DNA of 39,225 bases from a virus (Duplodnaviria > Heunggongvirae > Uroviricota > Caudoviricetes): IMG/VR virus record IMGVR_UViG_2574180019_000004, positions 1 to 39,225 of that record; one strand, given 5' to 3'. Within the stretch, counting starts at the first letter, position 1. Every line of letters begins with the position of its first letter. This document shows, piece by piece, positions 12,114 through 32,243 of the stretch. The notes under the pieces were generated by a model. That model saw only the letters and a program-made list of their open reading frames with translations. It searched no databases and had not been told where the DNA came from. Both the position numbers and the translations under genes were made by a program.

Positions 12114-12444
12114 ATCAGCAGCAGAGCGCAAAGCCGCTCAGAGAGCCAGACAAGCTGCATCTGGTGTGCGTAAGCTGGAGATTGTGCTTGATGCTCAGGA
12201 AATTGAAATGCTGGAGCGTAACTGTGCCACACGTCGCCCCGGGCGTGCGCCTTACGAATTTGGTGAGTATATAGCGTTACTGATCCGCCAGGATGATGCA
12301 CGCGTGCGCGGGCATATAAAATCGATCAGCAGAAAACGTTGCGGTAAGTGCGGCGAGAGAGTTCCAGTTAATTCATGCCCGTGTAATGGTGACTCGCAAT
12401 GCTGGGTGACTAAAGGCTGGCATGAAACGAAATTAATAGTGTGA
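12106..12444 (+). CDS. Zinc-finger protein, candidate late-gene regulator
   Basis: C-terminal CGKCGERVPVNSCPCNGDSQC; last gene before terminator/operator/terS; stop codon lies inside GTGACATGTCAC palindrome. Confidence 0.5.
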   Translation: MAKSAAERKAAQRARQAASGVRKLEIVLDAQEIEMLERNCATRRPGRAPYEFGEYIALLIRQDDARVRGHIKSISRKRCGKCGERVPVNSCPCNGDSQCWVTKGWHETKLIV

Positions 12445-12452
12445 CATGTCAC
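12441..12452. repeat. Palindrome GTGACATGTCAC (copy 1 of 3)
   Basis: Exact 12-bp palindrome; terminator hairpin follows at 12494. Confidence 0.6.
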
Positions 12453-12493
12453 GAGTAGATTATGCATGATGAATTTGATGTGTTTTGAATACT

Positions 12494-12519
12494 GCCGCCA
12501 ACTATGGCGGCTTTATTTT
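12494..12519 (+). terminator. Rho-independent terminator upstream of terS
   Basis: gccgcc-aactat-ggcggc followed by tttatttt. Confidence 0.6.
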
Positions 12520-12530
12520 GCATGTTACTA

Positions 12531-12563
12531 TTACCACAACGGTAACTATTACCACGGTGGTTA
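12531..12563. promoter_or_regulatory. Operator palindromes immediately upstream of terS
   Basis: Perfect TTACCacaacGGTAA 12531-12545 and imperfect TTACCacggtGGTtA 12549-12563. Confidence 0.55.
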
Positions 12564-12565
12564 TG

Positions 12566-13159
12566 ATGCCTGCTGAACCTAAAACCTATAAACGCAAATC
12601 AACGCAATTTAAGCCACTAACAGCAATGCAGGAGGCTTATTGCCAGTCATACATCAAAACGCCTGAAAACCAGACTCAGGCAGCGATTAACGCAGGATTC
12701 TCCCCAAATACAGCGGCAGTTAAAGCCAGTGTCATGATGCGCGATGAACGCATTCAAAAACGGATTGCCGAGTTGATGGAGGAGCGCAACAAACGAATGC
12801 GCGTCAGTGCTGATTACGTTCTCATGCGCCTGGTGGAGATCGACCAGATGGACGTGATCGACATCCTCAACGACGATGGGAGCCTTAAACCAATCCGTGA
12901 GTGGCCGAAAATCTGGCGCACTACGCTTAGTGGCTTTGATCTGTCATCGACCATCATGAACATGAACGAGGATTCGATAGAGACAATCCTCAAAAAAATT
13001 AAATGGCCTGACAAGGTGAAGAACCTTGAGCTGATTGGTAAGCATGTTGATGTCAACGCGTTCAAAGAACGTCTGGATGTTAATGTGAATGTGACAATTG
13101 CTGATCGCATAGCAGCAGCCAGGAAGAGACTGAAAGAACGTCAGGATGGCAATAAGTGA
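12566..13159 (+). CDS. terS: Terminase small subunit
   Basis: Conserved TerS-like region AYCQSYIKTPENQTQAAINAGFSPNTAAVKASVMMRD; directly upstream of and overlapping terL; N-terminal part of the tracked ORF treated as non-coding. Confidence 0.8.
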   Translation: MPAEPKTYKRKSTQFKPLTAMQEAYCQSYIKTPENQTQAAINAGFSPNTAAVKASVMMRDERIQKRIAELMEERNKRMRVSADYVLMRLVEIDQMDVIDILNDDGSLKPIREWPKIWRTTLSGFDLSSTIMNMNEDSIETILKKIKWPDKVKNLELIGKHVDVNAFKERLDVNVNVTIADRIAAARKRLKERQDGNK

Positions 13160-14631
13160 CAGATACAGCGTTATCTCCTGAAGATCAGTTAATCGAGGAT
13201 ATTGCAGGGTTCACTCACGATCCGCTTGGCTATGCCCTCTATGCGTTCCCGTGGGGGGAAGAGGGTACTGAACTGGCACATGCCACCGGTCCACGTCAGT
13301 GGCAGGCCGATGCGTTCCGAGAGATACGTGATCACCTGCAGAATCCAGAGACGCGCTATCAGCCGCTTATGCTGGCACGCGCTTCTGGTCACGGTATTGG
13401 TAAATCCGCATTCATCTCAATGCTGATCAACTGGGGCATGTCCACTTGCGAGGATTGTAAGGTCGTGGTGACCGCCAACACCGACAACCAGCTACGAACG
13501 AAGACCTGGCCGGAAATTATCAAGTGGTCGAACCTTGCTATCACGAAAGAGTGGTTTACCTGTACCGCTACCGCGATGTACAGCAATGACCCTGGGCACG
13601 ACAAGCGGTGGCGAGCTGACGCAATCCCCTGGTCTGAGCACAACACTGAGGCATTCGCCGGACTACACAACGAGCGAAAACGCATCATCGTGGTATTCGA
13701 TGAAGCGTCGAACATTGCGGATCTGGTGTGGGAAGTTGCTGAGGGTGCGCTTACGGACGAAGACACTGAGATTATCTGGGTGGCGTTCGGAAACCCTACA
13801 CGTAACACCGGACGTTTCCGCGAATGTTTCCGCAAATATAAACACCGCTGGAAAACTGCGCAGATTGACAGCCGAACGGTGGAAGGCACTAACAAACAGC
13901 AGTTGCAGAAATGGGTTGATGACTACGGGGAAGACAGCGACTTCGTTAAAATCCGTGTGCGCGGCATATTCCCTGATGCATCTGAATTGCAGTTTATCCC
14001 TACCGGTCTTACTGATGAGGCAATGAAACGGGTGGTAACCGCTGCGCAGGTGGCGCATGCTCCGGTGATAATCGGTGTTGACCCGGCATATTCAGGCGTT
14101 GATGACGCGGTGATATACCTGCGGCAGGGGCTACACAGTAAGGTGCTGTGGACTGGCAACAAGACTACCGACGATCTGATTATGGCGAAGCGTATCGCTG
14201 ACTTTGAAGACCAGTATCAGGCTGACGCGGTGTTCATCGACTTCGGTTACGGAACCGGTCTGAAGTCAATCGGTGACGGATGGGGTCGTACATGGCAACT
14301 TGTTCCGTTCGGTGGCGCGTCTACTGACCCGCAGATGCTCAACAAGCGTGGGGAGATGTTCAATTCATGCAAGACATGGCTGAGGCTGGGCGGCATGCTG
14401 GATGACCAGGAAACAGCAGACGACCTGTCGGCGGCAGAGTACAAAGTTCGAGTGGATGGTAAAATCGTTATCGAACCGAAGGAAGATATCAAGGAGCGGA
14501 TTGGGCGTTCGCCGGGTAAAGGCGATGCGCTACTGCTGACGTTTGCGTTCCCTGTGTCTAAGCGTCTGCAAATTCCCGGGCAGCAGAACCAGCAAGGCAA
14601 GGCCATCACAGATTACGATCCCTATGCTTAA
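13156..14631 (+). CDS. terL: Terminase large subunit
   Basis: Walker A-like ASGHGIGKSAF and Walker B-like IIVVFDEAS; GTGA overlap with terS stop. Confidence 0.85.
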   Translation: MTDTALSPEDQLIEDIAGFTHDPLGYALYAFPWGEEGTELAHATGPRQWQADAFREIRDHLQNPETRYQPLMLARASGHGIGKSAFISMLINWGMSTCEDCKVVVTANTDNQLRTKTWPEIIKWSNLAITKEWFTCTATAMYSNDPGHDKRWRADAIPWSEHNTEAFAGLHNERKRIIVVFDEASNIADLVWEVAEGALTDEDTEIIWVAFGNPTRNTGRFRECFRKYKHRWKTAQIDSRTVEGTNKQQLQKWVDDYGEDSDFVKIRVRGIFPDASELQFIPTGLTDEAMKRVVTAAQVAHAPVIIGVDPAYSGVDDAVIYLRQGLHSKVLWTGNKTTDDLIMAKRIADFEDQYQADAVFIDFGYGTGLKSIGDGWGRTWQLVPFGGASTDPQMLNKRGEMFNSCKTWLRLGGMLDDQETADDLSAAEYKVRVDGKIVIEPKEDIKERIGRSPGKGDALLLTFAFPVSKRLQIPGQQNQQGKAITDYDPYA

Positions 14632-14671
14632 TCCGCTGGTTGGGATAATGTCGTTGATATCCTCTGATGAG

Positions 14672-14705
14672 GATAAAACAAAGCCAGCTCATCGGCTGGC
14701 TGTTT
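14672..14705. terminator. Bidirectional intrinsic terminator between terL and convergent moron gene
   Basis: gccagc-tcatcg-gctggc with A-run upstream and tgtttg downstream. Confidence 0.6.
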
Positions 14706-14717
14706 GTGACATGTCAC
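14706..14717. repeat. Palindrome GTGACATGTCAC (copy 2 of 3)
   Basis: Exact copy immediately after the terminator hairpin. Confidence 0.6.
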
Positions 14718-14721
14718 GGTG

Positions 14722-15096
14722 TTATTGCTCGCTTAGCTTCTGCTTCAGCAAGTAACCTTCGAGCATCCAGATTTTGTTTACAGCATTCTGCCGGGCAATC
14801 TTCCTACCAATTTCTGCATCAAAGTTTTCCGGGCTTGCACAGGCACTCTCTCCGGTAACGGTGAAGCCATTCTTCAGTACCAATACGCAGAAAGTGAGAA
14901 GGTGCAGAGCATCAGGGGTGGCTTCGACATAAGGCTCCGGATTATAAATAAGGTCATCTTCTTTAGCCTGGTGGTCACCCTGCGCAGCAGTGAAAAAATG
15001 CTCACTGCAAATGAGGCCTTCAATTTTCTCGGGTGTTACACGCGGTGCCGTTTTGCCTTTCTCAACGATTTCTTTTTCGATTTGCTGGTCGTTCAT
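14722..15096 (-). CDS. Hypothetical protein (moron, opposite strand to packaging/head genes)
   Basis: 124-aa ORF with strong RBS AAGGTGAG 4 nt before ATG; co-oriented with tRNA; no motif recognised. Confidence 0.6.
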   Translation of the reverse strand: MNDQQIEKEIVEKGKTAPRVTPEKIEGLICSEHFFTAAQGDHQAKEDDLIYNPEPYVEATPDALHLLTFCVLVLKNGFTVTGESACASPENFDAEIGRKIARQNAVNKIWMLEGYLLKQKLSEQ

Positions 15097-15207
15097 AATC
15101 TCACCTTAAAAAAATGCCCGGCGAACCAGGCGAACTGGAAGCAATGAGTTATGCCTTCCGTGGCTGTACGGGTTTACAGCATGAAGTCATCGCAATGGCG
15201 TCCTGCT

Positions 15208-15251
15208 GTAAAAAGGGCGGTGATAGTCCTTCAAGGGAACCATCACCGCCA
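15208..15251 (-). terminator. Candidate terminator downstream of tRNA
   Basis: gggcggtgat ... atcaccgcc 9-bp stem with 17-nt loop, followed on minus strand by UUUU. Confidence 0.45.
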
Positions 15252-15293
15252 AGCACCTGGAACTTCTGGCATCACGGTCCTTAGGCGTGATTC

Positions 15294-15370
15294 TGGCGTG
15301 GCATGCAGGATTCGAACCTGCGACCAACCGCTTAGAAGGCGGTTGCTCTGTCCGACTGAGCTAATGCCAC
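15294..15370 (-). tRNA. tRNA-Arg (anticodon UCU)
   Basis: Minus-strand 77-nt cloverleaf folded by hand: acceptor GTGGCAT/ATGCCAC, D-stem GCTC/GAGC, anticodon stem ACCGC/GCGGT with loop CTTCTAA, T-arm GCAGG-TTCGAAT-CCTGC, discriminator G, encoded CCA. Confidence 0.9.
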
Positions 15371-15692
15371 AACGCTGAGAGCACTTAGCCTGTTAAGGCG
15401 CCACACTTTGTCGCGGCTCCATAAATGCTCTCATCGTTGTACCCTCGTCTCTTCCGAGGCGTCACACCGAATCGCCGGGATGGTGAATCCCCGTGCGCGG
15501 AATAAAACCGCTCGACTTGCACATTCCGGCTACCTGGTTCGTTTGCCCGAGCAAGGGAGGGTGCCCCTTAAACGTATCCAGACCGCTATCGTCGCATGTG
15601 CCATACGCCGTACTGCTCAAAATAAAAGCTCACTCCACCTGTTCAATTTAACGACAAGCCAGTCAGGTTAGTAACCGGAATGAGCTCTTTGG

Positions 15693-15707
15693 TTACCTTA
15701 AAGGTAA
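15693..15707. promoter_or_regulatory. Perfect operator palindrome upstream of head operon
   Basis: TTACCttaaaGGTAA; ATGTGGTT motif at 15753 between it and gene start. Confidence 0.6.
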
Positions 15708-15797
15708 TAATTCGTGCGTTAAATGTCAACTACCTACGATAAATAAATCATATGTGGTTAAATTGGTAATAATTTAATTGCGTACGGAGTCATTGAT

Positions 15798-16004
15798 ATG
15801 TGCATGGGTAGCTCACCATCAGTGCCTGCAACACCAGAAGTTCAGGCAGCACCACAGGAGCAGGATGCCGCCGTTGTTGATGCCCGCGACGAAGAAACAC
15901 GTCGCCGTCGCGCTGCTGCTGGTCGTAGTTCTACGCTGCTTACTGGTTCTCAGGGCGACACATCAACCGCTAATACCAGCGGTAAAACGCTGCTTGGTCA
16001 GTAA
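15798..16004 (+). CDS. Small hypothetical protein upstream of portal
   Basis: 68-aa ORF MCMGSSPSVPATPEV..., low complexity; weak support. Confidence 0.4.
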   Translation: MCMGSSPSVPATPEVQAAPQEQDAAVVDARDEETRRRRAAAGRSSTLLTGSQGDTSTANTSGKTLLGQ

Positions 16005-16018
16005 CCGGAGTCATTGAA

Positions 16019-17698
16019 ATGGCGGAAACAACTAAAGAGCGATTGAACAAACAGTTCGCACAACTTGAAAGCGAGCGTCAGTCGTTCGAGCCGCACTGGC
16101 GCGAGTTGAGTGATTACATCAACCCGCGTGGTTCCCGCTTTCTGACTTCAGAGGTCAACCGTAACGATCGACGCAATGCACGCATTATTGATTCGACCGG
16201 GACTATGGCGGCGCGCACTCTCGCCAGCGGCATGATGTCAGGCATCACAAGCCCCGCGCGTCCGTGGTTTCGCCTGGCTACGCCAGATCCTGAAATGATG
16301 GATTATGGCCCTGTTAAGTTGTGGCTTGAGGCGGTGCAGAACCGCATGAACGATATGTTCAATAAGTCGAATCTCTACCAGTCTCTTCCGCAGTTATACG
16401 GAAGCCTCGGCACATACAGCACTGGTGCAATGGCAGTGCTGGAGGATGACGAGGACATCATTCGTACAATGCCATTCCCGATAGGCAGTTACTACCTGGC
16501 TAACTCACCTCGTGGCAGTGTTGACACCTGTTTTCGCAAGTTCTCTATGACTGTTCGTCAGCTTGTTCAGGAGTTCGGGCTAAATAACGTCAGCGAATCC
16601 GTAAAAAGCATGTGGGAAAGCGGCACCTACGAGAAGTGGATCGAAGTGATGCATTCGGTTTACCCGAACATTGACCGCGATACATCGAAGCTGGATAGCA
16701 AGAACAAGCCATTCAAATCGGTTTATTACGAGGTTGGCGGCGATAACGACAAGTTGTTGCGTGAGTCCGGATTCGATGAGTTTCCAATTATGGCTCCGCG
16801 CTGGGAAGTTAACGGCGAAGATGTTTATGGATCATCATGCCCGGGTATGCTGGCGCTTGGACCTGTTAAGGCATTGCAGCTTCTCCAGAAGCGCAAGTCG
16901 CAGTTGATTGATAAAGCCACCAATCCGCCGATGGTTGCTCCGACTTCCCTCAAGAATCAGCGCGCCTCCCTTCTTCCTGGCGACATCACGTATATCGATC
17001 AGATTACTGGTCAGGATGGTTTCAGGCCTGCTTATCTGGTTAACCCCAGTACAGCAGATCTGGTGGCAGACATTCAGGACACTCGCCAAATCATTAACAG
17101 CGCCTACTTTGTCGATCTGTTCATGATGTTGCAGAACATCAATACCCGCTCGATGCCTGTTGAAGCGGTGATCGAAATGAAAGAAGAAAAACTTCTGATG
17201 TTGGGGCCGGTTCTGGAGCGTCTGAACGACGAATGTCTTAATCCTCTCATTGACCGCGCTTTCTCTATGATGGTGCGTAAAAACATGCTGCCGCCACCGC
17301 CTGACGCGATGGAAGGCATGCCCCTGAAGGTCGAATACATTTCCGTCATGGCTCAGGCGCAGAAGTCTATCGGCCTGTCCAGTCTGGCGTCCACGGTTAA
17401 CTTCATTGGTCAACTTGCGCAAGCGAAACCAGAAGCTCTCGACAAACTCAACGTTGATCAGGCGATCGATGCATTCGCTGATATGTCCGGAGTGTCTCCA
17501 ACCGTCATTGTTCCGCAGGAACAGGTTGAGCAGGCTCGCCAGCAACGGGCACAGCAACAACAGCAGCAACAAATGATGGCGATGGGGATGGCGGCGGCAC
17601 AGGGTGCCAAGACGCTAAGTGAAGCTAAAACTTCGGATCCGAGTGTTTTGTCAGCTATGGCGAATGCAGTTAGTGGTCAGGGTGGGCAATCACAATGA
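16019..17698 (+). CDS. Portal protein (T7 gp8-like head-to-tail connector)
   Basis: 559 aa; position after terminase; C-terminal Q/A/M-rich tail (QQRAQQQQQQQMMAMGMAAAQG) resembles remembered T7 portal C-terminus. Confidence 0.8.
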   Translation: MAETTKERLNKQFAQLESERQSFEPHWRELSDYINPRGSRFLTSEVNRNDRRNARIIDSTGTMAARTLASGMMSGITSPARPWFRLATPDPEMMDYGPVKLWLEAVQNRMNDMFNKSNLYQSLPQLYGSLGTYSTGAMAVLEDDEDIIRTMPFPIGSYYLANSPRGSVDTCFRKFSMTVRQLVQEFGLNNVSESVKSMWESGTYEKWIEVMHSVYPNIDRDTSKLDSKNKPFKSVYYEVGGDNDKLLRESGFDEFPIMAPRWEVNGEDVYGSSCPGMLALGPVKALQLLQKRKSQLIDKATNPPMVAPTSLKNQRASLLPGDITYIDQITGQDGFRPAYLVNPSTADLVADIQDTRQIINSAYFVDLFMMLQNINTRSMPVEAVIEMKEEKLLMLGPVLERLNDECLNPLIDRAFSMMVRKNMLPPPPDAMEGMPLKVEYISVMAQAQKSIGLSSLASTVNFIGQLAQAKPEALDKLNVDQAIDAFADMSGVSPTVIVPQEQVEQARQQRAQQQQQQQMMAMGMAAAQGAKTLSEAKTSDPSVLSAMANAVSGQGGQSQ

Positions 17699-17991
17699 CA
17701 GATTACGAAGACGATCAACTGAAAGAAGAAAACGCCCGTAAGCAACGTGACATGGTGCAGCGTGAAATTGATGACATTCGCTTTGTCATGAGCAGTGAAC
17801 AGGGGCGTCGCGTTGTCTGGTCGGTGCTGGAGAAAGGCCGTGTGTTTTCCGCTATCTCACCGATGGACGCTATGGCAATGGCATTTAATGAGGGGCAACG
17901 CAATCTGGCGCTGGAACTGTTTCAGCGCGTTATGGCGCATTGCCCTGAGCAGTATTTGAAGATGGCCAAAGAGGCCAGTGAACAGGAGTGA
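17695..17991 (+). CDS. Hypothetical head-module protein
   Basis: 98-aa ORF, ATGA overlap with portal stop. Confidence 0.55.
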   Translation: MTDYEDDQLKEENARKQRDMVQREIDDIRFVMSSEQGRRVVWSVLEKGRVFSAISPMDAMAMAFNEGQRNLALELFQRVMAHCPEQYLKMAKEASEQE

Positions 17992-17993
17992 TC

Positions 17994-18689
17994 ATGAATT
18001 TATTTGAGCGTTTGCTGTATCGCCGTCTTTGCAATGAGCAACCAGTCGATGGTGGAGCAGCTCCGGCTGCGTCAGAACCGTCAGCGCCTGCAGGTGATAA
18101 CCCTGCTCCAGTTGGTGATCCATCACAACAGGAAGGTGATAAGCCACAACCTGTTGCTGATGGCGATAAACCTGCTGATGACAAAAAGCCTGAAAACGAT
18201 AAGCAGGATGAAAAAAAGGACGGCGATAAACCAGAGGGTGCGCCTGAGAAGTACGAGTTTCAGGCTGCCGAAGGCGTAGAACTGGATACAGAAGCGTTGA
18301 AGGAATTCGAGCCGGTGGCGCGAGAACTTAACCTGACCAACGAGCAAGCGCAAAAGCTGGTTGATGCTTATCCGAAGATTCTGGCAGGTGTTCAGCAGCG
18401 CCAGGCAGAAGCCTGGCAGAAAACAACCGAGCAGTGGGCTGCGGATGTAAAAGCTGACAAAGAAATCGGTGGCGACAAGTTGATTTCTAACCTTAGCGCC
18501 GCACAGCGTGCGCTTGACCAGTTCGGGACACCTGAACTCAAAGAATATCTGAACACCACCGGGCTGGGTAATCACCCTGATCTGGTCAAAACGTTCGTGA
18601 AAATCGGAAAGGCGATGTCTGAAGATGGCATGGTCACCGGTGGTAATGAAGGCCAGCGTAGTGCGGCCGAAGTGCTCTATGGCAAATAA
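17994..18689 (+). CDS. Scaffolding protein (acidic, low complexity)
   Basis: Highly acidic P/A/D/K-rich N-terminal half and helical C-terminal half; between portal and capsid genes; ATG 17994 after AGGAG. Confidence 0.65.
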   Translation: MNLFERLLYRRLCNEQPVDGGAAPAASEPSAPAGDNPAPVGDPSQQEGDKPQPVADGDKPADDKKPENDKQDEKKDGDKPEGAPEKYEFQAAEGVELDTEALKEFEPVARELNLTNEQAQKLVDAYPKILAGVQQRQAEAWQKTTEQWAADVKADKEIGGDKLISNLSAAQRALDQFGTPELKEYLNTTGLGNHPDLVKTFVKIGKAMSEDGMVTGGNEGQRSAAEVLYGK

Positions 18690-18703
18690 GAGAGGAAATG
18701 ACA

Positions 18704-19690
18704 ATGGCTGTTAAAGGCTTAACTGCGCTAACGCTGGCTGACTGGGGTAAGCGCGTCGATCCAAACGGGAAAGTCGATAAGATTATCGAGCTTCTCGGTC
18801 AAACTAACCCGATCCTTCAGGATATGCCTTTTGTCGAAGGGAACCTTCCTACCGGACACCGAACCACCATTCGTTCTGGTTTACCTTCAGCTACCTGGCG
18901 TTTGCTGAACTATGGCGTACAGCCAAGCAAATCAACCACAGTGCAGGTAACCGATTCCGTTGGCATGCTGGAAACCTATGCTGAAGTCGATAAGTCACTG
19001 GCTGATCTGAACGGTAATACCGCCGAATTCCGCCTGTCTGAAGACCGCGCATTTATTGAAGCGATGAATCAGCAGATGGCGCAGACACTGTTTTATGGTG
19101 ATTCCAGCGTTAACCCTCAGCAGTTTATGGGACTGTCCTCCCGCTATTCCAGCCTGTCTGCGGGTAATGCTCAGAACATCATTGATGCTGGTGGCACGGG
19201 TACAGATAACACCTCAATCTGGTTAGTGGTGTGGGGCGAAAACACCGTGCATGGCATCTTCCCGAAAGGGCAGAAGGCTGGCATCCAGATGGAAGATAAA
19301 GGCCAGGTGACACTGGAAGATGCGAATGGCGGCAAGTACGAAGGCTACCGTACCCATTACAAATGGGACAACGGACTTGCTCTGCGTGACTGGCGTTATG
19401 TTGTTCGCATTGCAAACATCGATGTCAGCAATCTTTCAGAACCTTCCTCTGCCGCAAATATTGCGAAGTTGATGGTTAAAGCACTGCATCGCATTCCAAA
19501 TCGTGGCATGGGTCGCCCGGTGTTCTACATGAACCGCACTGTAGGCCAGGCTCTTGATCTGCAATCTCTGGAGAAAACATCTCTGGCGATCAGCGTAAAA
19601 GAGACAGAAGGCGAGTGGTGGACTTCATTCCGTGGTGTACCAATCCGTGAAACTGATGCGCTTCTGGAAACAGAAGCCCGCGTGGTGTAA
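18704..19690 (+). CDS. Major capsid protein
   Basis: 329 aa following scaffold gene with strong RBS GAGGAA; size and position typical; followed downstream by a terminator as after T7 gene 10. Confidence 0.7.
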   Translation: MAVKGLTALTLADWGKRVDPNGKVDKIIELLGQTNPILQDMPFVEGNLPTGHRTTIRSGLPSATWRLLNYGVQPSKSTTVQVTDSVGMLETYAEVDKSLADLNGNTAEFRLSEDRAFIEAMNQQMAQTLFYGDSSVNPQQFMGLSSRYSSLSAGNAQNIIDAGGTGTDNTSIWLVVWGENTVHGIFPKGQKAGIQMEDKGQVTLEDANGGKYEGYRTHYKWDNGLALRDWRYVVRIANIDVSNLSEPSSAANIAKLMVKALHRIPNRGMGRPVFYMNRTVGQALDLQSLEKTSLAISVKETEGEWWTSFRGVPIRETDALLETEARVV

Positions 19691-19741
19691 CGCCTGTTAT
19701 TAACCTGTGGGTCGTAACAGACCCACTAATGGAGAAAGAAG

Positions 19742-20179
19742 ATGATCACCGACAAACTGTTGATGTTCTCCGAAGCTCAGGCGGTTACGAATACCGCGGC
19801 TTCTACTGACGTAATCGATCTCGGTCCAATTGATGGAAACCGTCGCGATATCGGTGTGGGTTACCCGCTTGAGTTTTGGGTGCTGGTTAACGAATCCGCC
19901 ACGGCAAGTGGTGAGGCAACTGTAAACATCCAGTTGCAGACGAGTGAGAATAACAGCTCATGGACCACTATTTATGATAGTGGCGCACTGGCAAAGACCG
20001 CCCTGGCAGCAGGTAAACGAGTTGTTTCTGCAAAGGTGCCTGCCGGTGTTCAGCGATATCTGCGTGTTAACTACTCCGTCGCAACTGGCCCACTAACGGC
20101 CGGCAAATTCACTGCGGGTATCAGTCTGGATGTTGATGCCAATACGCCGTACCCGATCCGCTCAAAAGTAACTGGTTAA
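19742..20179 (+). CDS. Hypothetical virion protein (possible capsid decoration)
   Basis: 145-aa ORF with RBS GGAGAAAG; position after capsid gene. Confidence 0.5.
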   Translation: MITDKLLMFSEAQAVTNTAASTDVIDLGPIDGNRRDIGVGYPLEFWVLVNESATASGEATVNIQLQTSENNSSWTTIYDSGALAKTALAAGKRVVSAKVPAGVQRYLRVNYSVATGPLTAGKFTAGISLDVDANTPYPIRSKVTG

Positions 20180-20189
20180 GGTGATATCG

Positions 20190-20525
20190 ATGTCAGGTGA
20201 GAAACCAAGATACCGCGTTCTGCGCCTCTCTCATATCCATAACACTCTGTGGCCGGAGGGGGCAGAAATCGAATACGAAGGTGAGCCTGGTAGCGCACTG
20301 GAACCTGTGAACGATGCAGCCAGACAGGCAAAAGCAAAAGTTGCAGGAAAGGTGTCAATGGCAGCAACCAGCACCAAAATCATCAACGATGTGTCAGATG
20401 ATGGTGAACTGGATAAGCTCCGTGAAGAGTACGAATTGCTCTTTAACGAGAAGCCACACCATAACGCCAAAGCCGAAACGCTCCGCGAGAAGATCGCAGA
20501 TAAGCGTAAAGAACTGGGCGTGTAA
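20190..20525 (+). CDS. Hypothetical protein
   Basis: ATG 20190 after AGGTGA; 112 aa. Confidence 0.5.
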   Translation: MSGEKPRYRVLRLSHIHNTLWPEGAEIEYEGEPGSALEPVNDAARQAKAKVAGKVSMAATSTKIINDVSDDGELDKLREEYELLFNEKPHHNAKAETLREKIADKRKELGV

Positions 20526-20541
20526 GCCTCGCGGATCAGAC

Positions 20542-20563
20542 AAGGGGCTTCGGCCCCTTTATT
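20542..20563 (+). terminator. Rho-independent terminator within structural region
   Basis: aggggc-ttcg-gcccc followed by tttatt. Confidence 0.65.
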
Positions 20564-20575
20564 GCAGGAGTGTAT

Positions 20576-23975: not shown

Positions 23976-24439
23976 TGATCGATGTTCGAATTATTCCCGC
24001 CACCGAAGAGCATCTTCAGATGATTTTGCCGGATGTTCGTCAGGCTGATATTGACGAACTGTATGCGGTATCGCTGATGACTACCGAAGATGCGCTGCTT
24101 GTTGGTCTTCGCACTGCGACTATGGCCTGGTCAGGGTTCGCGAACGGAGAACTGGTAACCATGTTTGGTGTATCTCCGGCGTCAATGATCGGTGGCAATG
24201 GTACGCCCTGGCTGGTAGGAACCAGCCGTATTGAAAAATATCAGAAGACATTTCTGCGCCACTGCCGCCCTGTATTGCAGCAGATGCTGGCAGTTTATCC
24301 GCGCCTGGAAAACTACGTCGACGAGCGAAACCATGTTGCCAAAGCATGGCTGCACTGGCTTGGATTCAGGCTTGAAGAAGCCGCGCCTTATGGAGCTCTT
24401 GGTCTTTATTTCCACAGATTTCACATGGAGAGAAAATAA
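23975..24439 (+). CDS. Hypothetical virion protein (gp13 position)
   Basis: 154-aa ORF after RBS GGGGGG. Confidence 0.5.
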   Translation: MIDVRIIPATEEHLQMILPDVRQADIDELYAVSLMTTEDALLVGLRTATMAWSGFANGELVTMFGVSPASMIGGNGTPWLVGTSRIEKYQKTFLRHCRPVLQQMLAVYPRLENYVDERNHVAKAWLHWLGFRLEEAAPYGALGLYFHRFHMERK

Positions 24440-24978
24440 TGTGTAACCCAGCCATCGCTTTGGTTGCCGTCACAGTGGCATCCACAGCCGCGTCAATGTA
24501 CAGCCAGAGCAAGCAGGCAAAATACCAGTCAGCCATAGCTGATCGGAATGCTGAAATTGCTGAAGCTCAGGCACAGGATTCAATCAATCGTGGGAATATT
24601 GAAGCGGATCAGCGTCGTCGTGAAATGCGTCAACGCTCAGGCACTGCGGCGGCCACTATGGGGGCTACCGGTGCGGAATTAAGTAGCGGAACAGCTCTTG
24701 ACGTTTTTGCGGATAATGCTCAGTTCGGCACTCTTGATGCGTTAACGACAGTGAATAATGCTCAGCGTGAGGCATATGGGTATCAGGTTCAGGGAATGAA
24801 TGCTCAGGCACAGGGGGCTGCTGCTCAGTCGGCTGCTAAATCATCGATGACCAGCACTTTGTTAACGGCACCACTAAAAGCATACGGTGCATACCAGATG
24901 GGCGGAGGAACGTGGAGCCCATTCTCTCAGAAGGCTGCGCCGATTTCTGCTGCTGTTGGCACTCCAACCGGTCGATAA
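24439..24978 (+). CDS. Internal virion protein B-like (T7 gp14-like)
   Basis: Starts MCNPAIAL and ends PISAAVGTPTGR, resembling remembered T7 gp14 termini (MCWAAAI ... KGTKTGR); A/Q-rich. Confidence 0.65.
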   Translation: MCNPAIALVAVTVASTAASMYSQSKQAKYQSAIADRNAEIAEAQAQDSINRGNIEADQRRREMRQRSGTAAATMGATGAELSSGTALDVFADNAQFGTLDALTTVNNAQREAYGYQVQGMNAQAQGAAAQSAAKSSMTSTLLTAPLKAYGAYQMGGGTWSPFSQKAAPISAAVGTPTGR

Positions 24979-24990
24979 GGGGATAATAAG

Positions 24991-27504
24991 ATGCCAGTTG
25001 TACCAACAACATCGGGCCGTCAGGTTCAGAGCAGAGGGATTTCGACGCAGGGATTCTCATCGTTTCAGACACCAAATGTCGGTGATGTACTTGGCGATGT
25101 TGCAGAGCAATATGCAGGTATTATTGCGCAGGCAAAACAGCGTGCGAATGTTGCTATGGCTCAGGATGCTTCTCTTAGCTTAAGCCAGATAAGCAGCGAT
25201 CTGCTGAATAACCCTGAAACAGGTTTGCTTAACCTGAAAGGGAAAAATGCTATTGGAAAAGTTCAGGAGTATACGCAGCAGTTTGATGCCCAGGTCGAGC
25301 AACTGGCTATGTCGCTGCCGGATGAACAGGCTCGTAATGCTTTCATGCAGCAGGCGCAGCAGCAGCGCATTCAGTTCACTACGCAGGCCGGGCGGCACGA
25401 GATAGGGCAAATAAATGCCTACGAAGAAGGCCAGTTTCAGGCGACGCTGCTGAACAATGGTAAAAATGCCGCAGCATTGTATGGCGACAACGCCGCATAC
25501 GTATTGGCTAATAAGCAAACTTTCCAGCAAATTGAGGATTACGGCATTGCGCATGGCTGGAGCGACGAGCAAATCCAGGCCAAGAAAATCGAGTTTAAAG
25601 AGAAGGTTGCTGATGCAGCATTGTCCCAGTGGTCGGCAAACAATGCGACCGCATTCATCCAAAGTAATGGCGAGTTAAGTGATACTGCTGCTGGAGCTCG
25701 CCGTGCTGTAGCAGATAGTGACTCTTCCGAGCGTGCCCGTGGCATACGCAACAATAACCCAGGAAATCTCGAATACAGCAAAACCAATCCGTGGGTAGGC
25801 CAGACCGGTGATGATGGTCGATTTGCTAAATTCGAAACACCTGAACACGGGATTCGTGCATTAGGGCGGAACCTGATGTCGTATCAGAGGCAGGGTATTG
25901 ATACCGTCAGCGAGATAATTAATCGCTGGGCACCGCCTACTGATAAAAATGACACTATGTCGTATATCAAAGCAGTGTGCGAACAACTTGGCGTTTCTGC
26001 TGATGAGCCTCTCGATGCATCTAATCCTGATACCCTGAAGGCGCTTTGTGCAGCCATTATCCATCATGAGAACGGTAGCCAGCCATACAGTGATCAGCAG
26101 CTAACTGCTGGTGTCAGTGCAGCACTTGGTTTATCAACAATTCCAACCAACACCAAACGCTATACCGGTAATGCAGCATTCGATGCGGCATCTCCTGAGG
26201 CGCAGGCAAGTTTTATGCGACAGGCGGATCAACTGCGTCGGCAGCAGCAGGCTGAATATAAAACGATGATTGACAGCCAAGTTCGCGATGCGACAGCTGC
26301 GTATATGCGTGGCGTTGAGTTTCCTAACCCACCTGGTGAGGCTGATTTTATTGCAGCTTATGGAGTCAGAGAAGGAAACCTGCGATATACCGAGTTCAGA
26401 AATACGCAAATCGCCGGACAGTATATAGGCTCTTTCCGCAACATGCCGACAAGCAGCATTACAGCATATGTTGAGCAATTACGCCCGGATACTGGTGAGA
26501 CAGGGGAGGGTTATGCGGCACGAGCCGCTCTTTATGACAACGTTGTGTCGGCTGCAAGTCAGGTGATAAAGCAGAGACAGGCTGATCCTGTACAGTTCTC
26601 TCTTGCCGCCGGACAGGCAAAGCCTATCGACATGAGCAATAAGGATAACTTTGGACAGAGCGTTGCCTTGCGTGCTGCTCAGGTCAGTGACCTTGCTAAG
26701 TCATATGGCACTCCACTGACGTTCTTTTCCAAAGACGAGGCCAATCAGATCGGTGTTTTCTTTCGTGATGCGCCCGTTTCCCAACAGGCAGCATATCTCG
26801 ATACCATCAGGCAGAGCACTGGTGGTGGGCAGGTGTATATGTCAGCACTACAGCAGATCAGTGCCAACGCTCCATCTGCTGCCGTTGCCGGGATACTGAT
26901 GGATAAGCCAGGTGGTATTTTGGCAGAAAAAAACTGGTTTAATCCGGATGTTTCCGTGTCTCCAGAAACCGCTGCGCAGACAATTCTTGCTGGCGCGGCG
27001 GCTCGTAAAGGTACTGATGACGCGAAAGGTATTCCGATGCCTAAAGATGCTGATCTTCGCCTTGAGTTTTCTGACATGGTGAAGGATGCATTTGCTGGTG
27101 ATGCTCAGGGGGCATCAATGGCATACGAGATCGCAAAGGACTATTACGCTGGTGTGATGGCGAAAAAAGGCGTGGTATCAGGCGAAATTGACAATGATAT
27201 CTGGAAACAGGCTGTTAACGTAGCTACAGGTGGCGTGCATGACTATAACGGAATGGGGAATGTTCTTTTGCCGTGGGGAATGTCTGCAGAGCAATTCGAT
27301 AAGCAGGTTAATCAGGCTTGGAATGAACAAGTTGTTGGCACAGGGATAAAAACACCGCCTGGTCAGTATGGTTTGCAAAGTTACGGCGATAGTCAGTACC
27401 TGGTGAAACTTGGTACTGGTTATCTGCTGAAAGATGATGGTTCTCCTGTTGTTCTTGATCTGACACAGAAGCGTCAGAGATTCTCCGGAGATATTCCGCA
27501 ATGA
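24991..27504 (+). CDS. Internal virion/ejection protein with putative peptidoglycan-hydrolase-like segment
   Basis: 837 aa; segment IRNNNPGNLEYS...GIRALGRNLMSYQRQG...IINRWAP looks muramidase/transglycosylase-like (unverified); gp15/16 position. Confidence 0.55.
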   Translation: MPVVPTTSGRQVQSRGISTQGFSSFQTPNVGDVLGDVAEQYAGIIAQAKQRANVAMAQDASLSLSQISSDLLNNPETGLLNLKGKNAIGKVQEYTQQFDAQVEQLAMSLPDEQARNAFMQQAQQQRIQFTTQAGRHEIGQINAYEEGQFQATLLNNGKNAAALYGDNAAYVLANKQTFQQIEDYGIAHGWSDEQIQAKKIEFKEKVADAALSQWSANNATAFIQSNGELSDTAAGARRAVADSDSSERARGIRNNNPGNLEYSKTNPWVGQTGDDGRFAKFETPEHGIRALGRNLMSYQRQGIDTVSEIINRWAPPTDKNDTMSYIKAVCEQLGVSADEPLDASNPDTLKALCAAIIHHENGSQPYSDQQLTAGVSAALGLSTIPTNTKRYTGNAAFDAASPEAQASFMRQADQLRRQQQAEYKTMIDSQVRDATAAYMRGVEFPNPPGEADFIAAYGVREGNLRYTEFRNTQIAGQYIGSFRNMPTSSITAYVEQLRPDTGETGEGYAARAALYDNVVSAASQVIKQRQADPVQFSLAAGQAKPIDMSNKDNFGQSVALRAAQVSDLAKSYGTPLTFFSKDEANQIGVFFRDAPVSQQAAYLDTIRQSTGGGQVYMSALQQISANAPSAAVAGILMDKPGGILAEKNWFNPDVSVSPETAAQTILAGAAARKGTDDAKGIPMPKDADLRLEFSDMVKDAFAGDAQGASMAYEIAKDYYAGVMAKKGVVSGEIDNDIWKQAVNVATGGVHDYNGMGNVLLPWGMSAEQFDKQVNQAWNEQVVGTGIKTPPGQYGLQSYGDSQYLVKLGTGYLLKDDGSPVVLDLTQKRQRFSGDIPQ

Positions 27505-29303
27505 GTTACTTTGGCCTTAATCCAGTAAACCAGAATCAGCAGCTTGACGAAGCAGCATCAAATCCAGCTGGCTTTAACAGCGATGTTGGTTTTTTCGACA
27601 ATGCTGTAGGGGCGGCATTGTCTGGTTTGTACTCCGGGCTGGTGGCAAAGCCAGATCAGTTGCTATGGGCAGGGATGGATAAAATCGTATCCCCGATTGC
27701 TCAGTTTGTTAACGAAAACACCTTGCTCAATGACACTTCAGTTTCATACATTGCTGAGCAGAGAAAACTAGCAGAGCAGCAGGTTAAGCGGCTGACGCCT
27801 GATGCCGCGACAACCGGAACCGCCGGGCAGGTTCTTTATGTGTTGTTCGATATGGGCGGGCAGGCTGTTGTCGGTACAACGCTCGGTGGTCCTGTCGGAG
27901 GTGCAGCGGCGGTAACTTCGCTACAGGGTTTTTCTGAGTTTGAACGGCTGACAGCACAGGGTGTTGATTTCAGGACGGCGCAGGAAGCGGGATTAGTGCA
28001 GGGCATTACTGCTGGTGCCGGAACACTGATCCCTATGAGCCTCGGGTTACGTGCTGGTGGTGCGCTGGCGGAAGGTGTGGCGGCTCAGCTTGCGCGGACG
28101 GGTGAGAGTTCAGTGCGACGCGCCGCAGCAACAGCAGTACGTGCAACGCCAGATATTGCCTATGCCGCAGGTACAAATATTGCGTTCGGTATGGCACAGC
28201 GTGGGCTTACTGCAAAAACGCTTCGTGATGGTGGCTATAGCGAAATGGCTAACCAGTATGATGTGTTGGATCGACAGGCAATTGCTATTGATGCTGTTCT
28301 TGGGGTGGCGTTTGGTGGTGTCGGCAGATTTATTAACTCTCGCGGCGAGTCTACAAGCACACCAAATTTTTCACCAGTTGATATCGATGCTGCACTGGCG
28401 GCGAATGCCGCTCATCATGCTGAAATTGATATTGCTCCTGGCGTGCCGATCAACGTGCTTTCGCGTAATTCTCACATTCAGGCTCTGCGAAAAGCCATGT
28501 CTGATGTTAGCCAGGGGAGAGATGTAGACGTTGCCAGCATTGTTGAGTCTGCATCTTTCAGTGAAATTCCTGGGCGCAAGAGTCTGCTGTCTCAGGCAGT
28601 TAATGAGGCTCTGTCATCTGTAGATGATGGAGTAACGGCGCGCGCTATAGAAAATCGGTTGCTTGAAGAACAGGCCGCGCAGCTTTTGCCGCGTGGCGAT
28701 AGACAGGTTTACCAGTCTGAAATCGCTAATAGCCAACGAATTATTGAAAATCTCACTGAACAGCGCGCACAAATTCTTGCAGAAGAGCCAACCGGTAGCG
28801 GTAAGGCTTTATCTCGTGCTCGATCAGATAAACAGGCCAGACTTCGCGATATTGACCAACGAATCCGGCAGGCACAAGAACGCCTGGAATCTTCTCGTAA
28901 CGCGTTGGCACCGCACGAGCCTGGCGGTCAGTTTTTTGAAGCTAGAGCAGAACTGGCTCGGAGACAGCAGGCAGAAAGTGAACTTAATGCTCAGGCTGTT
29001 TCATTCTATAAAACAGCAGAGGTCAGGACGCCAGACGAAGTAGCTCCTTTTGAGCCCGGTAAGATATTGCAACAGGCAGAACAAAAGATGATGGCAGATC
29101 CGGCAGGAGATATTGATCTGCGCATAGCTGAAGATTCGCTGCTTGAATCACCGGACATGATAATAACCGTGCTGGATGATGATGGTAATCCACAATCGCG
29201 CAGCGCGCGTGAAGTGCTGGATGAAGCGAACAGGGAAAGTGAGCAGGCAATACAGGATTCCAGCCTGTTTGATGTTGCTGTGGCGTGTTTCTTGAGAGGT
29301 TAA
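27501..29303 (+). CDS. Internal virion/ejection protein
   Basis: 600-aa ORF, ATGA-type overlap with previous gene; A/G-rich N-terminus. Confidence 0.55.
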   Translation: MSYFGLNPVNQNQQLDEAASNPAGFNSDVGFFDNAVGAALSGLYSGLVAKPDQLLWAGMDKIVSPIAQFVNENTLLNDTSVSYIAEQRKLAEQQVKRLTPDAATTGTAGQVLYVLFDMGGQAVVGTTLGGPVGGAAAVTSLQGFSEFERLTAQGVDFRTAQEAGLVQGITAGAGTLIPMSLGLRAGGALAEGVAAQLARTGESSVRRAAATAVRATPDIAYAAGTNIAFGMAQRGLTAKTLRDGGYSEMANQYDVLDRQAIAIDAVLGVAFGGVGRFINSRGESTSTPNFSPVDIDAALAANAAHHAEIDIAPGVPINVLSRNSHIQALRKAMSDVSQGRDVDVASIVESASFSEIPGRKSLLSQAVNEALSSVDDGVTARAIENRLLEEQAAQLLPRGDRQVYQSEIANSQRIIENLTEQRAQILAEEPTGSGKALSRARSDKQARLRDIDQRIRQAQERLESSRNALAPHEPGGQFFEARAELARRQQAESELNAQAVSFYKTAEVRTPDEVAPFEPGKILQQAEQKMMADPAGDIDLRIAEDSLLESPDMIITVLDDDGNPQSRSAREVLDEANRESEQAIQDSSLFDVAVACFLRG

Positions 29304-29308
29304 ATTAA

Positions 29309-31783
29309 ATGAGACAGGAATGTATACAAGCGGTCCAGCAGGCGGCGCAGCGCACGTTAACGGCGCGAGAAATACAGAACATTGAAGACCGCATTTATCG
29401 AAATATGCGCTCCATTGCTCGTGATGACCCGATGTCGTGGCGACAACTTTCCGAATCAGAACGGTTGTATCGTGCAGCACAATTGGCATCTGAAGAATTA
29501 CAGCGAGAAGCGGCATTAAAGAAACGTCGTGTGGCCCTCACTATAGCCGCACGTCAGAGATTGGATAAATTTATCAATAGCTATCAAGGGGCTGATGGGA
29601 AACTTGGCGCTCTTAACCGTACTATTGCTTTTAATGCAGACGGTAAATCGAATTTCCTCTCTGTTGAATCCAGAACAAAAGCCACCCGTGATTATGCATT
29701 GAGTCAATTGCAGGAGGCATTCGAAGCAGTTGATCCTCGCTTTTTTGGTCTGTTTGAAGATGAAGCGGGCGTACGTGACCTGGTATATGAAATGCGGGGG
29801 CAAAATACTGGCAATGCTAAAGCAAGAAAAGGTGCTAAGGCGTGGAGAGAAGTTACAGAGCTGCTGCGCCGCCGGTTTAATGATGCTGGTGGGGACATTG
29901 GCTATCTCGAAAACTGGGGGATCCCTCAACATCATTCTATGGAAAAGGTTGGGGCAGTATCAAAGGATAAGTGGGTTAGCGATGTTATAGGTAAGCTGGA
30001 TCGCAAATATTATATCCGAGCCGATGGACAACTGATGAACGATGCCGAGTTGTCTTCATTTCTTGGAGAGGCTTATAACACGATCGCTACTGGTGGGCTG
30101 AATAAGCTTACTGATACCGGAATGCGAATTTCCGGCGCACGTGCTAACCGTGGTAATGCATCACGACAGATACATTTCAAAGATGCAGATTCCTATCTGC
30201 AATATCAGCAACTTTATGGCGATCGCTCTCTATGGGAAATCATGGTCGGTCACCTGGAAGGTATCAGTAAAGATATTGCACTGGTGGAAACATATGGCCC
30301 AAACCCCGATCATGTTTTCCGCTCTCTTCTTGATCAGGTGAAGGCAGAAACGGCAACAGCTAACCCGAGTAAAACCGGTAAAGTCGAGCGGCTGGCGAAC
30401 AACACAGAGAATCTGTACAACTTTATTTCCGGAAAGACACAGCCTGTAGCGAATCCGCACATCGCGCGATGGTCTGACAATATCCGCAACTGGCTGGTTG
30501 CCAGCAGACTCGGATCCGCGTTGCTGTCATCGTTCTCTGATCTTGGAACCATGTATCTGTCTGCGAAGGTGACCAACCTTCCAATGAACCAGTTATTCCG
30601 CAACCAGCTTGAAGCTATGGACCCAACGAACCGTACTGAGCTTGCGCGGGCGCGCCGCGCTGGTCTGGCGATGGAATCTCTACTTGGCAGCGTTAACCGC
30701 TGGGCGATGGATAATATGGGGCCGTCTGTGTCTCGTTGGGCTGCAACGGCGGTAATGCGTGCCAGTGGGCTTACAGCATGGTCAGATGCGCACAAGCGCG
30801 CCTATGGCGTAACCATGATGGGAAGCCTGGGAGAAGTAGTGTCACGGACACCAGACCTTCGTAGCCTCGATGACTCTGATTTTCGTATCCTGAAAAGTAA
30901 AGGGATTACTGACACAGACTGGAGCGTATGGAAGCTGGCGCAACAGGAGGACTGGGGGAACGGTAATAATACGATGCTGACACCGGAAAGCATTATGCGT
31001 ATCCCTGATTCAGCAGTTAAACATCTTGGTGAGCCTGAACGCGTGAAATTTGAGGCAATGCGTAAACTGCTCGGTGCCGTAACTGAAGAAGTTGATATGG
31101 CTGTTATTACACCGGGCGCACGTGAGCAGATGTTCGTAGGGTCTGGTCTTCAGCGTGGAACATGGAAAGGTGAATTAACGAGAAGTGTTTTCCTGTTTAA
31201 ATCGTTCCCTATCTCGGTTGTTATGCGTCACTGGTCACGCGCTATGGGTATGCCGTCTGCTGGTGGGCGTGCAGCATATATAGCAACGTTTTTAGCAAGC
31301 ACAACCATGCTTGGTGCTCTTTCCATGCAGATTACTGATCTTATTAATGGGAGAAATCCAAAGGAAATGACCGGTGACCACATGGTTAAATTCTGGATAA
31401 ATGCATTTTTAAAAGGTGGCGGGGCTGGGTTGTACGGTGATTTTCTTTTCTCTGACCACACTAGGTACGGGAGCGGCGCGCTGGCGTCGATGCTTGGCCC
31501 GGTAGCTGGTCTGGTTGATGACGTAGTGAAGATAGCTCAGGGCATACCGCTAAATGCTGTGGAAGGGAAGAGTGAGCAGACTGGTGGTGATCTGGTTAAG
31601 CTGGGGAAGGGGCTGATGCCAGGTGCGAATCTCTGGTACTTGAAGGCGGCTCTCGATCATATGATCTTTAACCAGATGCAGGAGTATTTTTCACCAGGCT
31701 ATTTGCGTAAAATGGAGCAACGTTCGAAGAAAGAGTTTAACCAGACATACTGGTGGCGACCTCAGGATGTCACTCCGCAATAA
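29309..31783 (+). CDS. Internal virion/ejection protein (large)
   Basis: 824-aa ORF with RBS GAGG; last large gene before moron island. Confidence 0.55.
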   Translation: MRQECIQAVQQAAQRTLTAREIQNIEDRIYRNMRSIARDDPMSWRQLSESERLYRAAQLASEELQREAALKKRRVALTIAARQRLDKFINSYQGADGKLGALNRTIAFNADGKSNFLSVESRTKATRDYALSQLQEAFEAVDPRFFGLFEDEAGVRDLVYEMRGQNTGNAKARKGAKAWREVTELLRRRFNDAGGDIGYLENWGIPQHHSMEKVGAVSKDKWVSDVIGKLDRKYYIRADGQLMNDAELSSFLGEAYNTIATGGLNKLTDTGMRISGARANRGNASRQIHFKDADSYLQYQQLYGDRSLWEIMVGHLEGISKDIALVETYGPNPDHVFRSLLDQVKAETATANPSKTGKVERLANNTENLYNFISGKTQPVANPHIARWSDNIRNWLVASRLGSALLSSFSDLGTMYLSAKVTNLPMNQLFRNQLEAMDPTNRTELARARRAGLAMESLLGSVNRWAMDNMGPSVSRWAATAVMRASGLTAWSDAHKRAYGVTMMGSLGEVVSRTPDLRSLDDSDFRILKSKGITDTDWSVWKLAQQEDWGNGNNTMLTPESIMRIPDSAVKHLGEPERVKFEAMRKLLGAVTEEVDMAVITPGAREQMFVGSGLQRGTWKGELTRSVFLFKSFPISVVMRHWSRAMGMPSAGGRAAYIATFLASTTMLGALSMQITDLINGRNPKEMTGDHMVKFWINAFLKGGGAGLYGDFLFSDHTRYGSGALASMLGPVAGLVDDVVKIAQGIPLNAVEGKSEQTGGDLVKLGKGLMPGANLWYLKAALDHMIFNQMQEYFSPGYLRKMEQRSKKEFNQTYWWRPQDVTPQ

Positions 31784-31792
31784 GGAACAACA

Positions 31793-32206
31793 ATGAAGGA
31801 ATTATTGCTGTTATCGGTATTTTTGATATCCGCTTGCTCGACATCCTATGATGTTTATGACGGTGTTGATAAGGCATATTGCGACAAAGTTAAAATGGAT
31901 TTTTCTCTTGCCAAGACGGCGAAGGATAGTTGTATTGATCACTACGTCAAGACTTATACCAAGCCAGCATCATCGGCATCTGATATTGCTGAAGGTGCTG
32001 TGTTTGAGTGTAACAAGGTGATATCCATCGCAGCGAGTTCTTCATACGATGCTGCTGTATGTGCAATGGCTGAAAGAAACGGCATGTCAGTGCAAAAAGT
32101 TAATAGCATGATAAACAGTAATGACGAAGCCAAAATAAGAACTGATATCAGCTCGGTGAAAAAAGATGCCATGAACAGAGTTGTAAAATATCAGTCATCT
32201 TTATAA
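31793..32206 (+). CDS. Lipoprotein (moron; candidate superinfection-exclusion factor)
   Basis: Signal peptide with lipobox MKELLLLSVFLISAC-S; 137 aa; followed by palindrome and terminator. Confidence 0.7.
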   Translation: MKELLLLSVFLISACSTSYDVYDGVDKAYCDKVKMDFSLAKTAKDSCIDHYVKTYTKPASSASDIAEGAVFECNKVISIAASSSYDAAVCAMAERNGMSVQKVNSMINSNDEAKIRTDISSVKKDAMNRVVKYQSSL

Positions 32207-32207
32207 G

Positions 32208-32219
32208 TCGTGACATGTC
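32208..32219. repeat. Palindrome GTGACATGTCAC (copy 3 of 3)
   Basis: Exact copy, immediately followed by terminator hairpin. Confidence 0.6.
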
Positions 32220-32243
32220 ACAGGCCGCAAAAGCGGCCTTGTT
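32220..32243 (+). terminator. Rho-independent terminator after lipoprotein gene
   Basis: aggccgc-aaaa-gcggcct followed by tgtttt. Confidence 0.65.

Follow-up and report, generated by a model that had tools for sequence, protein, structure and literature searches.

In the 39,225 nucleotides of IMG/VR record IMGVR_UViG_2574180019_000004 (hereafter the window), which hold a complete epsilon15-like prophage, a 12-bp perfect palindrome, GTGACATGTCAC, lies at the 3' ends of three successive rightward units, namely the early operon, the terS-terL operon and the virion structural operon. We propose that this palindrome is probably a duplex DNA binding site, of general form GTGAC-N2-GTCAC, for the protein encoded by the gene that ends at its first copy, a homologue of epsilon15 gp49 belonging to PHROG 536, and that protein and site form a pair like MatP and matS with a spacer shorter by 1 bp. 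The motif is conserved among related phages, keeps its placement in them and is linked to the gp49-family gene well beyond the epsilon15 group.

Three copies of the palindrome at operon ends

The window contains exactly three copies of GTGACATGTCAC, at 12441-12452 (copy 1), 14706-14717 (copy 2) and 32210-32221 (copy 3), and no additional copy with up to two mismatches was found over its whole length. A chance origin is rejected, since none of 100 dinucleotide-preserving shuffles of the window held an exact copy. An earlier reading of the DNA made from the letters alone (the sequence-only reading) had already claimed that the 12-mer is present three times and not by chance, and our counts agree with it; its coordinates were right for copies 1 and 2, but the third copy, which it gave as 32208-32219, was misplaced by 2 nt. 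Its view that the copies mark module boundaries, before terS, after terL and after a lipoprotein moron, is likewise confirmed by the gene context. Copy 1 lies between terS (PF03592) and the gp49-like gene (12106-12444, plus strand, 112 aa), the last gene of the early rightward operon, whose TGA stop codon is formed by bases 2-4 of the palindrome. Copy 2 follows terL and is placed between the hairpin behind that gene and the stop of a minus-strand accessory gene that ends 4 nt away, a moron at 14722-15096 matching Pfam Phage_gp49_66 (the N4 gp49/Sf6 gp66 family). Copy 3 begins 3 nt past the lipoprotein gene, a 137-aa open reading frame (ORF) with the lipobox LISAC; a terminator hairpin comes directly after it, followed by the 3' end of a minus-strand Bro-N antirepressor gene.

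The sequence-only reading had also proposed looking for the 12-mer in related phages, and this search located it in epsilon15, Tyrion, SPN1S and phiV10, always at the three positions known from the window, with a single mismatch in copy 1 of phiV10. In these Uetakeviruses the flanks diverge, and other genes stand in place of the one before copy 3 and the one after copy 2. Among the IMG/VR relatives the 12-mer shows no variation over the unique contexts compared, 22 for copy 1 and 26 for copy 2, and conservation drops off exactly at the edge of the palindrome: the minus-strand genes whose ends lie 4 nt from copy 2 are of at least eight unrelated kinds, and the inserts after copy 1 differ. The element is not listed in the heavily annotated records of epsilon15 and phiV10.

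Some further features were seen around these copies. Degenerate fourth copies, GTGACATGGCAT and GTGACATGTCAT, occur right after Rz in epsilon15 and SPN1S (L002 26618 and L004 26722), at the end of the lysis operon and next to attP; the window has no fourth copy after Rz. In one IMG/VR relative (L155, about 10360-10400) a perfect LexA-box-like TACTGTGTATATATACAGTA stands just past copy 1 and is followed by an extra 85-aa ORF, so that the insert between palindrome and terS resembles an accessory gene under SOS control, placed at this same joint. Copy 1 of the window (12441-12470) doubles as a sigma-70-like promoter (GTGACA, 18 bp, CATGAT), with a counterpart in epsilon15, Tyrion and SPN1S (GTGACA, 17 bp, TAAATT); a transcript started there would run directly into the terminator before terS, a layout like that of lambda PR'-tR'.

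Other simple roles of the palindrome were considered and rejected. As a promoter -35 element it fits only copy 1 and some arrays of P2-like phages, not copies 2 and 3. It is not the operator of the prophage repressor, those operators being TTACC-N5-GGTAA. Nor is it a pac site; that the phiV10 record begins within the palindrome follows simply from where this record ends, namely at the stop codon of its last gene.

The motif is linked to the gp49-family gene

The 309 IMG/VR loci compared (5.35 Mb), sampled through their gp49-family protein, contain 441 matches to GTGAC-N2-GTCAC for about 5 expected. After reduction to 232 unique loci (3.96 Mb) there are 343 matches, while control motifs of identical composition (everted, direct or reversed half-sites, or spacers of 0, 1, 3 and 4 bp) yield 0-11. 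The half-sites are invariant and the centre is free, yet the central dinucleotide (AT, TG or GC) follows the subfamily of the protein. In 120 of the 232 unique loci the motif starts 1 nt before the stop of the gp49-family gene, and the overlap of copy 1 with the stop codon is also found in epsilon15, Tyrion, SPN1S and phiV10.

The association extends to distant homologues. The Pectobacterium myovirus ZF40, whose homologue is 63% identical, has the exact 12-mer in three places, including one 3 nt past the stop of the homologue. N15 and phiKO2, with a homologue 35% identical, have GTGACTGGTCAC around the stop codon and additional copies elsewhere, one in repA. The Vibrio phage K308 carries two copies of GTGACACGTCAC and one of GTGACGCGTCAC, and in a P2-like Yersinia phage a perfect copy lies 33 bp from an imperfect one.

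The candidate binding protein has recognisable homologues in epsilon15 (gp49), phiV10 (p55) and N15 (gene 46), and its family, PHROG 536, is labelled 'transcriptional regulator'. The family comprises 242 clusters at 50% identity among 1.84 billion representatives; it is found in podo-, myo- and siphoviruses, N15 and epsilon15 included, and its named members come from Enterobacterales, Vibrio and Aeromonas. DNA methyltransferase genes recur beside the family gene, either upstream (ZF40 gp20-21, phiKO2 gp42) or downstream; such neighbours were noted in ZF40, phiKO2, L136, L242, L243 and L251.

In line with the linkage, P22, which lacks a gp49-family gene, has no copy of the motif. Several points weigh against the proposal that gp49 acts at these sites. 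The sample was drawn through the protein itself, and P22 is the only phage without the gene in it. Copies 2 and 3 overlap no recognisable promoter, so that this phage gives no sign of a classical role as repressor or activator. What lies downstream of the gene-and-site unit is heterogeneous (xis/int, methyltransferases, exonuclease, NinB, terS), and no single regulatory target emerges. A late-gene activator or Q analogue, another function that we considered for gp49, is weakened by the same heterogeneity and by the presence of a Q of their own in N15 and phiKO2.

Predicted resemblance of gp49 to MatP

No match to gp49 was obtained in sequence searches of Pfam, NCBIfam and the PDB, and the best Pfam ribbon-helix-helix (RHH) model, PF10723, stays below threshold (E = 0.034). 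The alignment of the family shows an Arg-rich N-terminal helix (AERKAAQRARQ in gp49), a conserved EYIxLLIR helix and four invariant cysteines (Cys40, 79, 82, 99). A RHH core is predicted, and the Cys-rich C-terminal part may bind zinc. A first AlphaFold2 model, built on 18 sequences, had a pLDDT of 63 and gave no Foldseek matches; the second, built on a 29-sequence alignment, reached 79.7 and is the only usable one. The top PDB match of this model is the MatP-matS complex, followed by ribbon-helix-helix proteins, and a structure search of BFVD returned nothing informative. A profile alignment with hhalign places gp49 residues 1-77 on MatP 70-142 (basic helix and RHH), with E-values of 0.54 for 29 sequences and 0.049 for 108 sequences; the register is consistent but the score is not significant.

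The site points in the same direction. The matS site of Escherichia coli, GTGACRNYGTCAC, has the form GTGAC-RNY-GTCAC (PMC6907758), and its half-sites are those of the phage motif. Host MatP, not the phage protein, could be what binds the palindromes, the phage borrowing it perhaps to bring its DNA close to the terminus or the division site, or to exclude MukBEF. The identity of the half-sites speaks for this, as do the hosts, since the phages infect Enterobacterales, Vibrio and Aeromonas, which are among the lineages possessing MatP. Moreover, 88% of the centres are purine-pyrimidine (AT, GC, AC), like the R-N-Y of matS minus its N. We nevertheless consider a host-MatP site unlikely. In the 3.96 Mb of related loci the spacer is 2 bp at 343 sites and 3 bp, as in matS, at a single one, and the loss of 1 bp turns the half-sites by about 36 degrees relative to each other. 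Bobay et al. did not detect the 13-bp matS in any of 500 prophages of Escherichia and Salmonella, from which they deduced avoidance of the site (PMC3603311). Binding by the host protein also leaves unexplained why the motif sits on the stop codon of one phage gene, in homologues down to 35% identity, and why the central dinucleotide tracks the subfamily of that gene.

Our literature search returned no description of a MatP-like phage protein or of a matS-like phage site. The 12-mer itself was not found in any paper; the genome paper of epsilon15, where it could be mentioned, lay outside the search.

Terminators and the nature of the site

Each copy has an intrinsic terminator beside it, as the sequence-only reading had stated for this DNA, and the relatives share this arrangement. 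The first terminator, t1 (12494-12519, plus strand; hairpin 12494-12511 and T-run), lies between copy 1 and the repressor operators before terS, its hairpin starting 41 nt past the palindrome; an equivalent is annotated in the epsilon15 record. The second, t2 (14675-14701, minus strand; hairpin 14682-14701), has its hairpin 4 nt from copy 2 and is oriented for the minus-strand accessory gene, with its T-run on the minus strand, the plus-strand T-run being poor. The third, t3 (32222-32246, plus strand; hairpin 32222-32239 and T-run), follows copy 3 directly and offers no T-run to the minus-strand antirepressor transcript. All three are unidirectional, and at every copy the order is gene stop, palindrome, hairpin and T-run in the sense of the gene ending there, which at copy 2 is a minus-strand gene, so that the order reads on the minus strand.

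The earlier idea that the site is tied to termination therefore holds in this phage group but not for the motif in general. Among 235 unique sites in related phages, 24% have a terminator within 60 nt, against 2.9% of random positions; other copies are found within coding regions, a short way upstream of ribosome-binding sites or as members of phased arrays. Adjacency to a terminator is thus a trait of this group of phages. The palindrome is not a part of the terminators either: it is a separate element 1-41 nt from the hairpins and adds no stable structure. A roadblock that helps the hairpin was rejected on geometry, because a polymerase would be stalled about 14 bp before the site, i.e., inside the hairpin.

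We then have to consider whether the element works as DNA or as RNA. As RNA, the hairpin of the 12-mer has a folding energy of -1.2 kcal/mol, not better than that of shuffles, and Rfam holds no known RNA family at the sites. Sites with an asymmetric centre occur in both orientations, and intragenic copies are found on either strand, in cII and gp08 of ZF40 and in repA of N15 and phiKO2. Near-sites within 100 bp of perfect sites fall solely at distances of 32-35 and 65-66 bp, which correspond to about 3 and 6 turns of the helix; these arrays are located in P2-like phages, where they separate the cargo region from the portal gene. Taken together, the weak hairpin, the use of both orientations, the intragenic copies and the helical phasing favour a duplex site bound by a symmetric protein. 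A protein-binding site was one of the options raised by the sequence-only reading, and our data favour it and supply a candidate protein, encoded at copy 1, a link which that reading had missed, as it had the likeness to matS; the RNA processing hairpin offered beside it finds no support in the folding energy, the orientations or the Rfam search.

A different RNA function would be antitermination, in which the palindrome forms a hairpin upstream of the terminator and is bound by the Arg-rich N-terminus of gp49 as lambda N binds boxB, so that polymerase reads through t1 and t3 and the late genes are expressed from the early operon. The layout would suit it: the palindrome precedes a plus-strand terminator at copies 1 and 3 and a minus-sense one at copy 2, stop codons lie 0-7 nt before it, gp49 is the last early gene and has the AERKAAQRARQ helix, and the phiV10 and epsilon15 records contain no annotated Q- or N-like gene. 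We regard this as very unlikely given a hairpin no stronger than that of shuffles, with neither a boxA-like partner nor an Rfam match. The terminators accompany a minority of the family sites, as stated above, many sites lie in coding regions or in antisense orientation, and the arrays phased at about 33 bp indicate duplex DNA. In addition, N15 and phiKO2 have a separate Q-like antiterminator, and the late units of the present prophage have repressor operators of their own.

The P2-like phages gave additional observations. In them the gp49 homologue comes after gpA and is the first gene of the variable cargo region (L006, Yersinia phage vB_YenM_42.18, 7974-11719; also L171, L179 and L209), and the phased arrays close this region beside the 3' end of the portal gene. 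The cargo region of vB_YenM_42.18 includes an 872-aa protein annotated 'Smc'. Another phage of the sample, L124, has the 12-mer and a gp49 homologue together with iteron-like arrays of 5-7 GTCAC/GTGAC pentamers at about 10-bp spacing (7264-7320 and 7551-7595) inside a 341-aa ORF; these arrays may be an origin using the same pentamer.

The palindrome at mosaic joints

The abrupt loss of conservation at the palindrome edge raises the question of whether the element is mainly a recombination joint, where short-homology exchange or a site-specific activity of gp49 swaps accessory genes and modules. The many unrelated genes that end at copy 2 and the varied inserts after copy 1 and genes before copy 3 are what such a joint would produce. 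However, 12 bp are very short for homologous exchange, for which the conserved terL and terminator flank offers far more homology, and no signature of a nuclease, a recombinase or an HUH protein is present in gp49. Any element under selection can be expected to have mosaic joints at its edge, and the intragenic copies in cII of ZF40 and in repA of N15 and phiKO2 are not at module boundaries. We therefore give this explanation the least credence of those considered, and a joint of this kind appears highly improbable. The module-exchange signpost suggested by the sequence-only reading described the pattern correctly, in that conservation stops at the edge and varied accessory genes abut it, but the pattern is more simply read as a conserved functional island at a mosaic joint.

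The prophage and its other control elements

The window runs from integrase to Rz and represents a complete Uetakevirus prophage whose closest relatives are phiV10 and the O157 typing phages 9 and 10. The window is bounded by a direct repeat of 17 bp, ATTGAGTGGGAATGATT (1-17 and 39209-39225); it is presumably the att core, in which case the window is exactly one prophage from attL to attR.

The motif TTACC-N5-GGTAA, annotated in the epsilon15 record as the binding sites of the prophage repressor, is present in 13 copies for 0.63 expected, at 151-165, 5643-5719, 6417-6479, 8748-8824, 12531-12563, 15693-15707, 33217-33324 and 34430-34444. They occupy the immunity region and also stand directly upstream of terS, the gp3/portal operon, the antirepressor module and the tail-fibre gene. 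The two operator-like sites at 12531-12563, directly upstream of terS, suggest that the packaging operon has its own repressor-controlled promoter. From the operators ahead of the late units, it seems that these units have repressor-controlled promoters of their own, on which the repressor would act directly.

Two Rfam matches above the gathering score, the C4 antisense RNA and the Hfq-binding sRNA isrK (32999-33085 and 33104-33180, both on the minus strand), lie respectively in the 5' end of the Bro-N antirepressor gene (32264-33103) and immediately upstream of it. Together with this gene they look like an antirepressor control module of the P1 immI or Gifsy type inserted between tail genes. 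A tRNA-Arg (anticodon TCT) is encoded at 15294-15370 on the minus strand, in the accessory-gene region between terL and the portal operon.

Proposed mechanism and significance

From the linkage of gene and site and the predicted fold, we infer that gp49 binds the palindrome and the geometry in which it would do so: a symmetric dimer on each copy, as E. coli MatP on matS. The spacer shorter by 1 bp would probably keep the phage pair separate from the pair of the host. As to the effect, we can only guess: dimers on the sites might set off or strengthen the borders of operons, by stopping read-through, by bringing sites together in loops, an ability that MatP has, or by both. Loops of this kind would contain terS-terL (2.3 kb) and the structural operon (17.5 kb).

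A broader proposition, which we put forward as doubtful, is that temperate phages of enterobacteria, vibrios and aeromonads possess a small-scale counterpart of the MatP/matS system, free of cross-reaction with that of the host. In it a protein of about 110 aa would read 'matS minus one base pair' and pair two or three sites per genome, leading to looped domains bordered by operon ends or to interference with host SMC/MukBEF-type machines on phage DNA; such a system would also point to an evolutionary link of the protein with MatP.

If gp49 does bind the palindrome, the two would form a widespread regulator-and-site pair not described before. The near-identity to matS, together with the reported avoidance of matS in prophages, raises the possibility that phages own a MatP-like organising or boundary system tuned against cross-talk with the host, and also the alternative question of whether a phage protein of this kind was the ancestor of MatP. 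For annotation, the epsilon15 and phiV10 records can be supplemented with a conserved element that stands at three operon ends and is absent from them; it also offers a way into the question of how epsilon15-like phages keep early, packaging and structural transcription apart.

Comparison with known systems

Of the known systems, the N/nut (boxB) and Q/qut systems of lambda share with the present one the position of the candidate factor gene, the last early gene directly upstream of the terminator before the late genes, and the presence of a short dyad just before terminators. The phage sites differ in being perfect DNA palindromes with neither a boxA nor a stable RNA hairpin (-1.2 kcal/mol), and a promoter-like context as in qut is found only at copy 1. 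The gp49 family moreover co-exists with a Q-like gene in N15 and phiKO2 and has no general association with terminators.

The RHH regulators (Arc, Mnt, CopG, omega, the ParD and TacA antitoxins, AmrZ) have a beta-alpha-alpha fold whose dimer forms a two-stranded sheet, and they bind short symmetric or repeated operators that often overlap a promoter. The phage site is symmetric, and overlap with a promoter is plausible at copy 1 and in the P2-like arrays; it is absent at copies 2 and 3, which lie at the 3' ends of genes. In contrast to these regulators, gp49 reaches the threshold of no Pfam RHH model and has an additional Cys-rich C-terminal part.

MatP and matS organise the Ter macrodomain in E. 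coli and its relatives. Their half-sites GTGAC and GTCAC are identical to those of the phage site, inverted and separated by a short free centre; the predicted basic helix and RHH core are the best PDB match of the gp49 model; in both cases a few sites are dispersed over the replicon instead of a single operator; the phased multi-site arrays of the P2-like phages would suit site pairing; and the host lineages overlap. There are also differences. The phage site measures 12 bp with a 2-bp spacer, whereas matS measures 13 bp with a 3-bp spacer. MatP reportedly consists of a four-helix bundle, a ribbon-helix-helix and a C-terminal coiled coil, an architecture that gp49 does not reproduce: with 112 aa it aligns only to the last helix of the bundle and the RHH (MatP 70-142), has no counterpart of residues 1-69, most of the four-helix bundle, and has a Cys-rich C-terminus where MatP has the coiled coil. 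Finally, gp49 is encoded by the phage, with one site fixed on the stop codon of its own gene, and a chromosome-organising role is known for MatP only.

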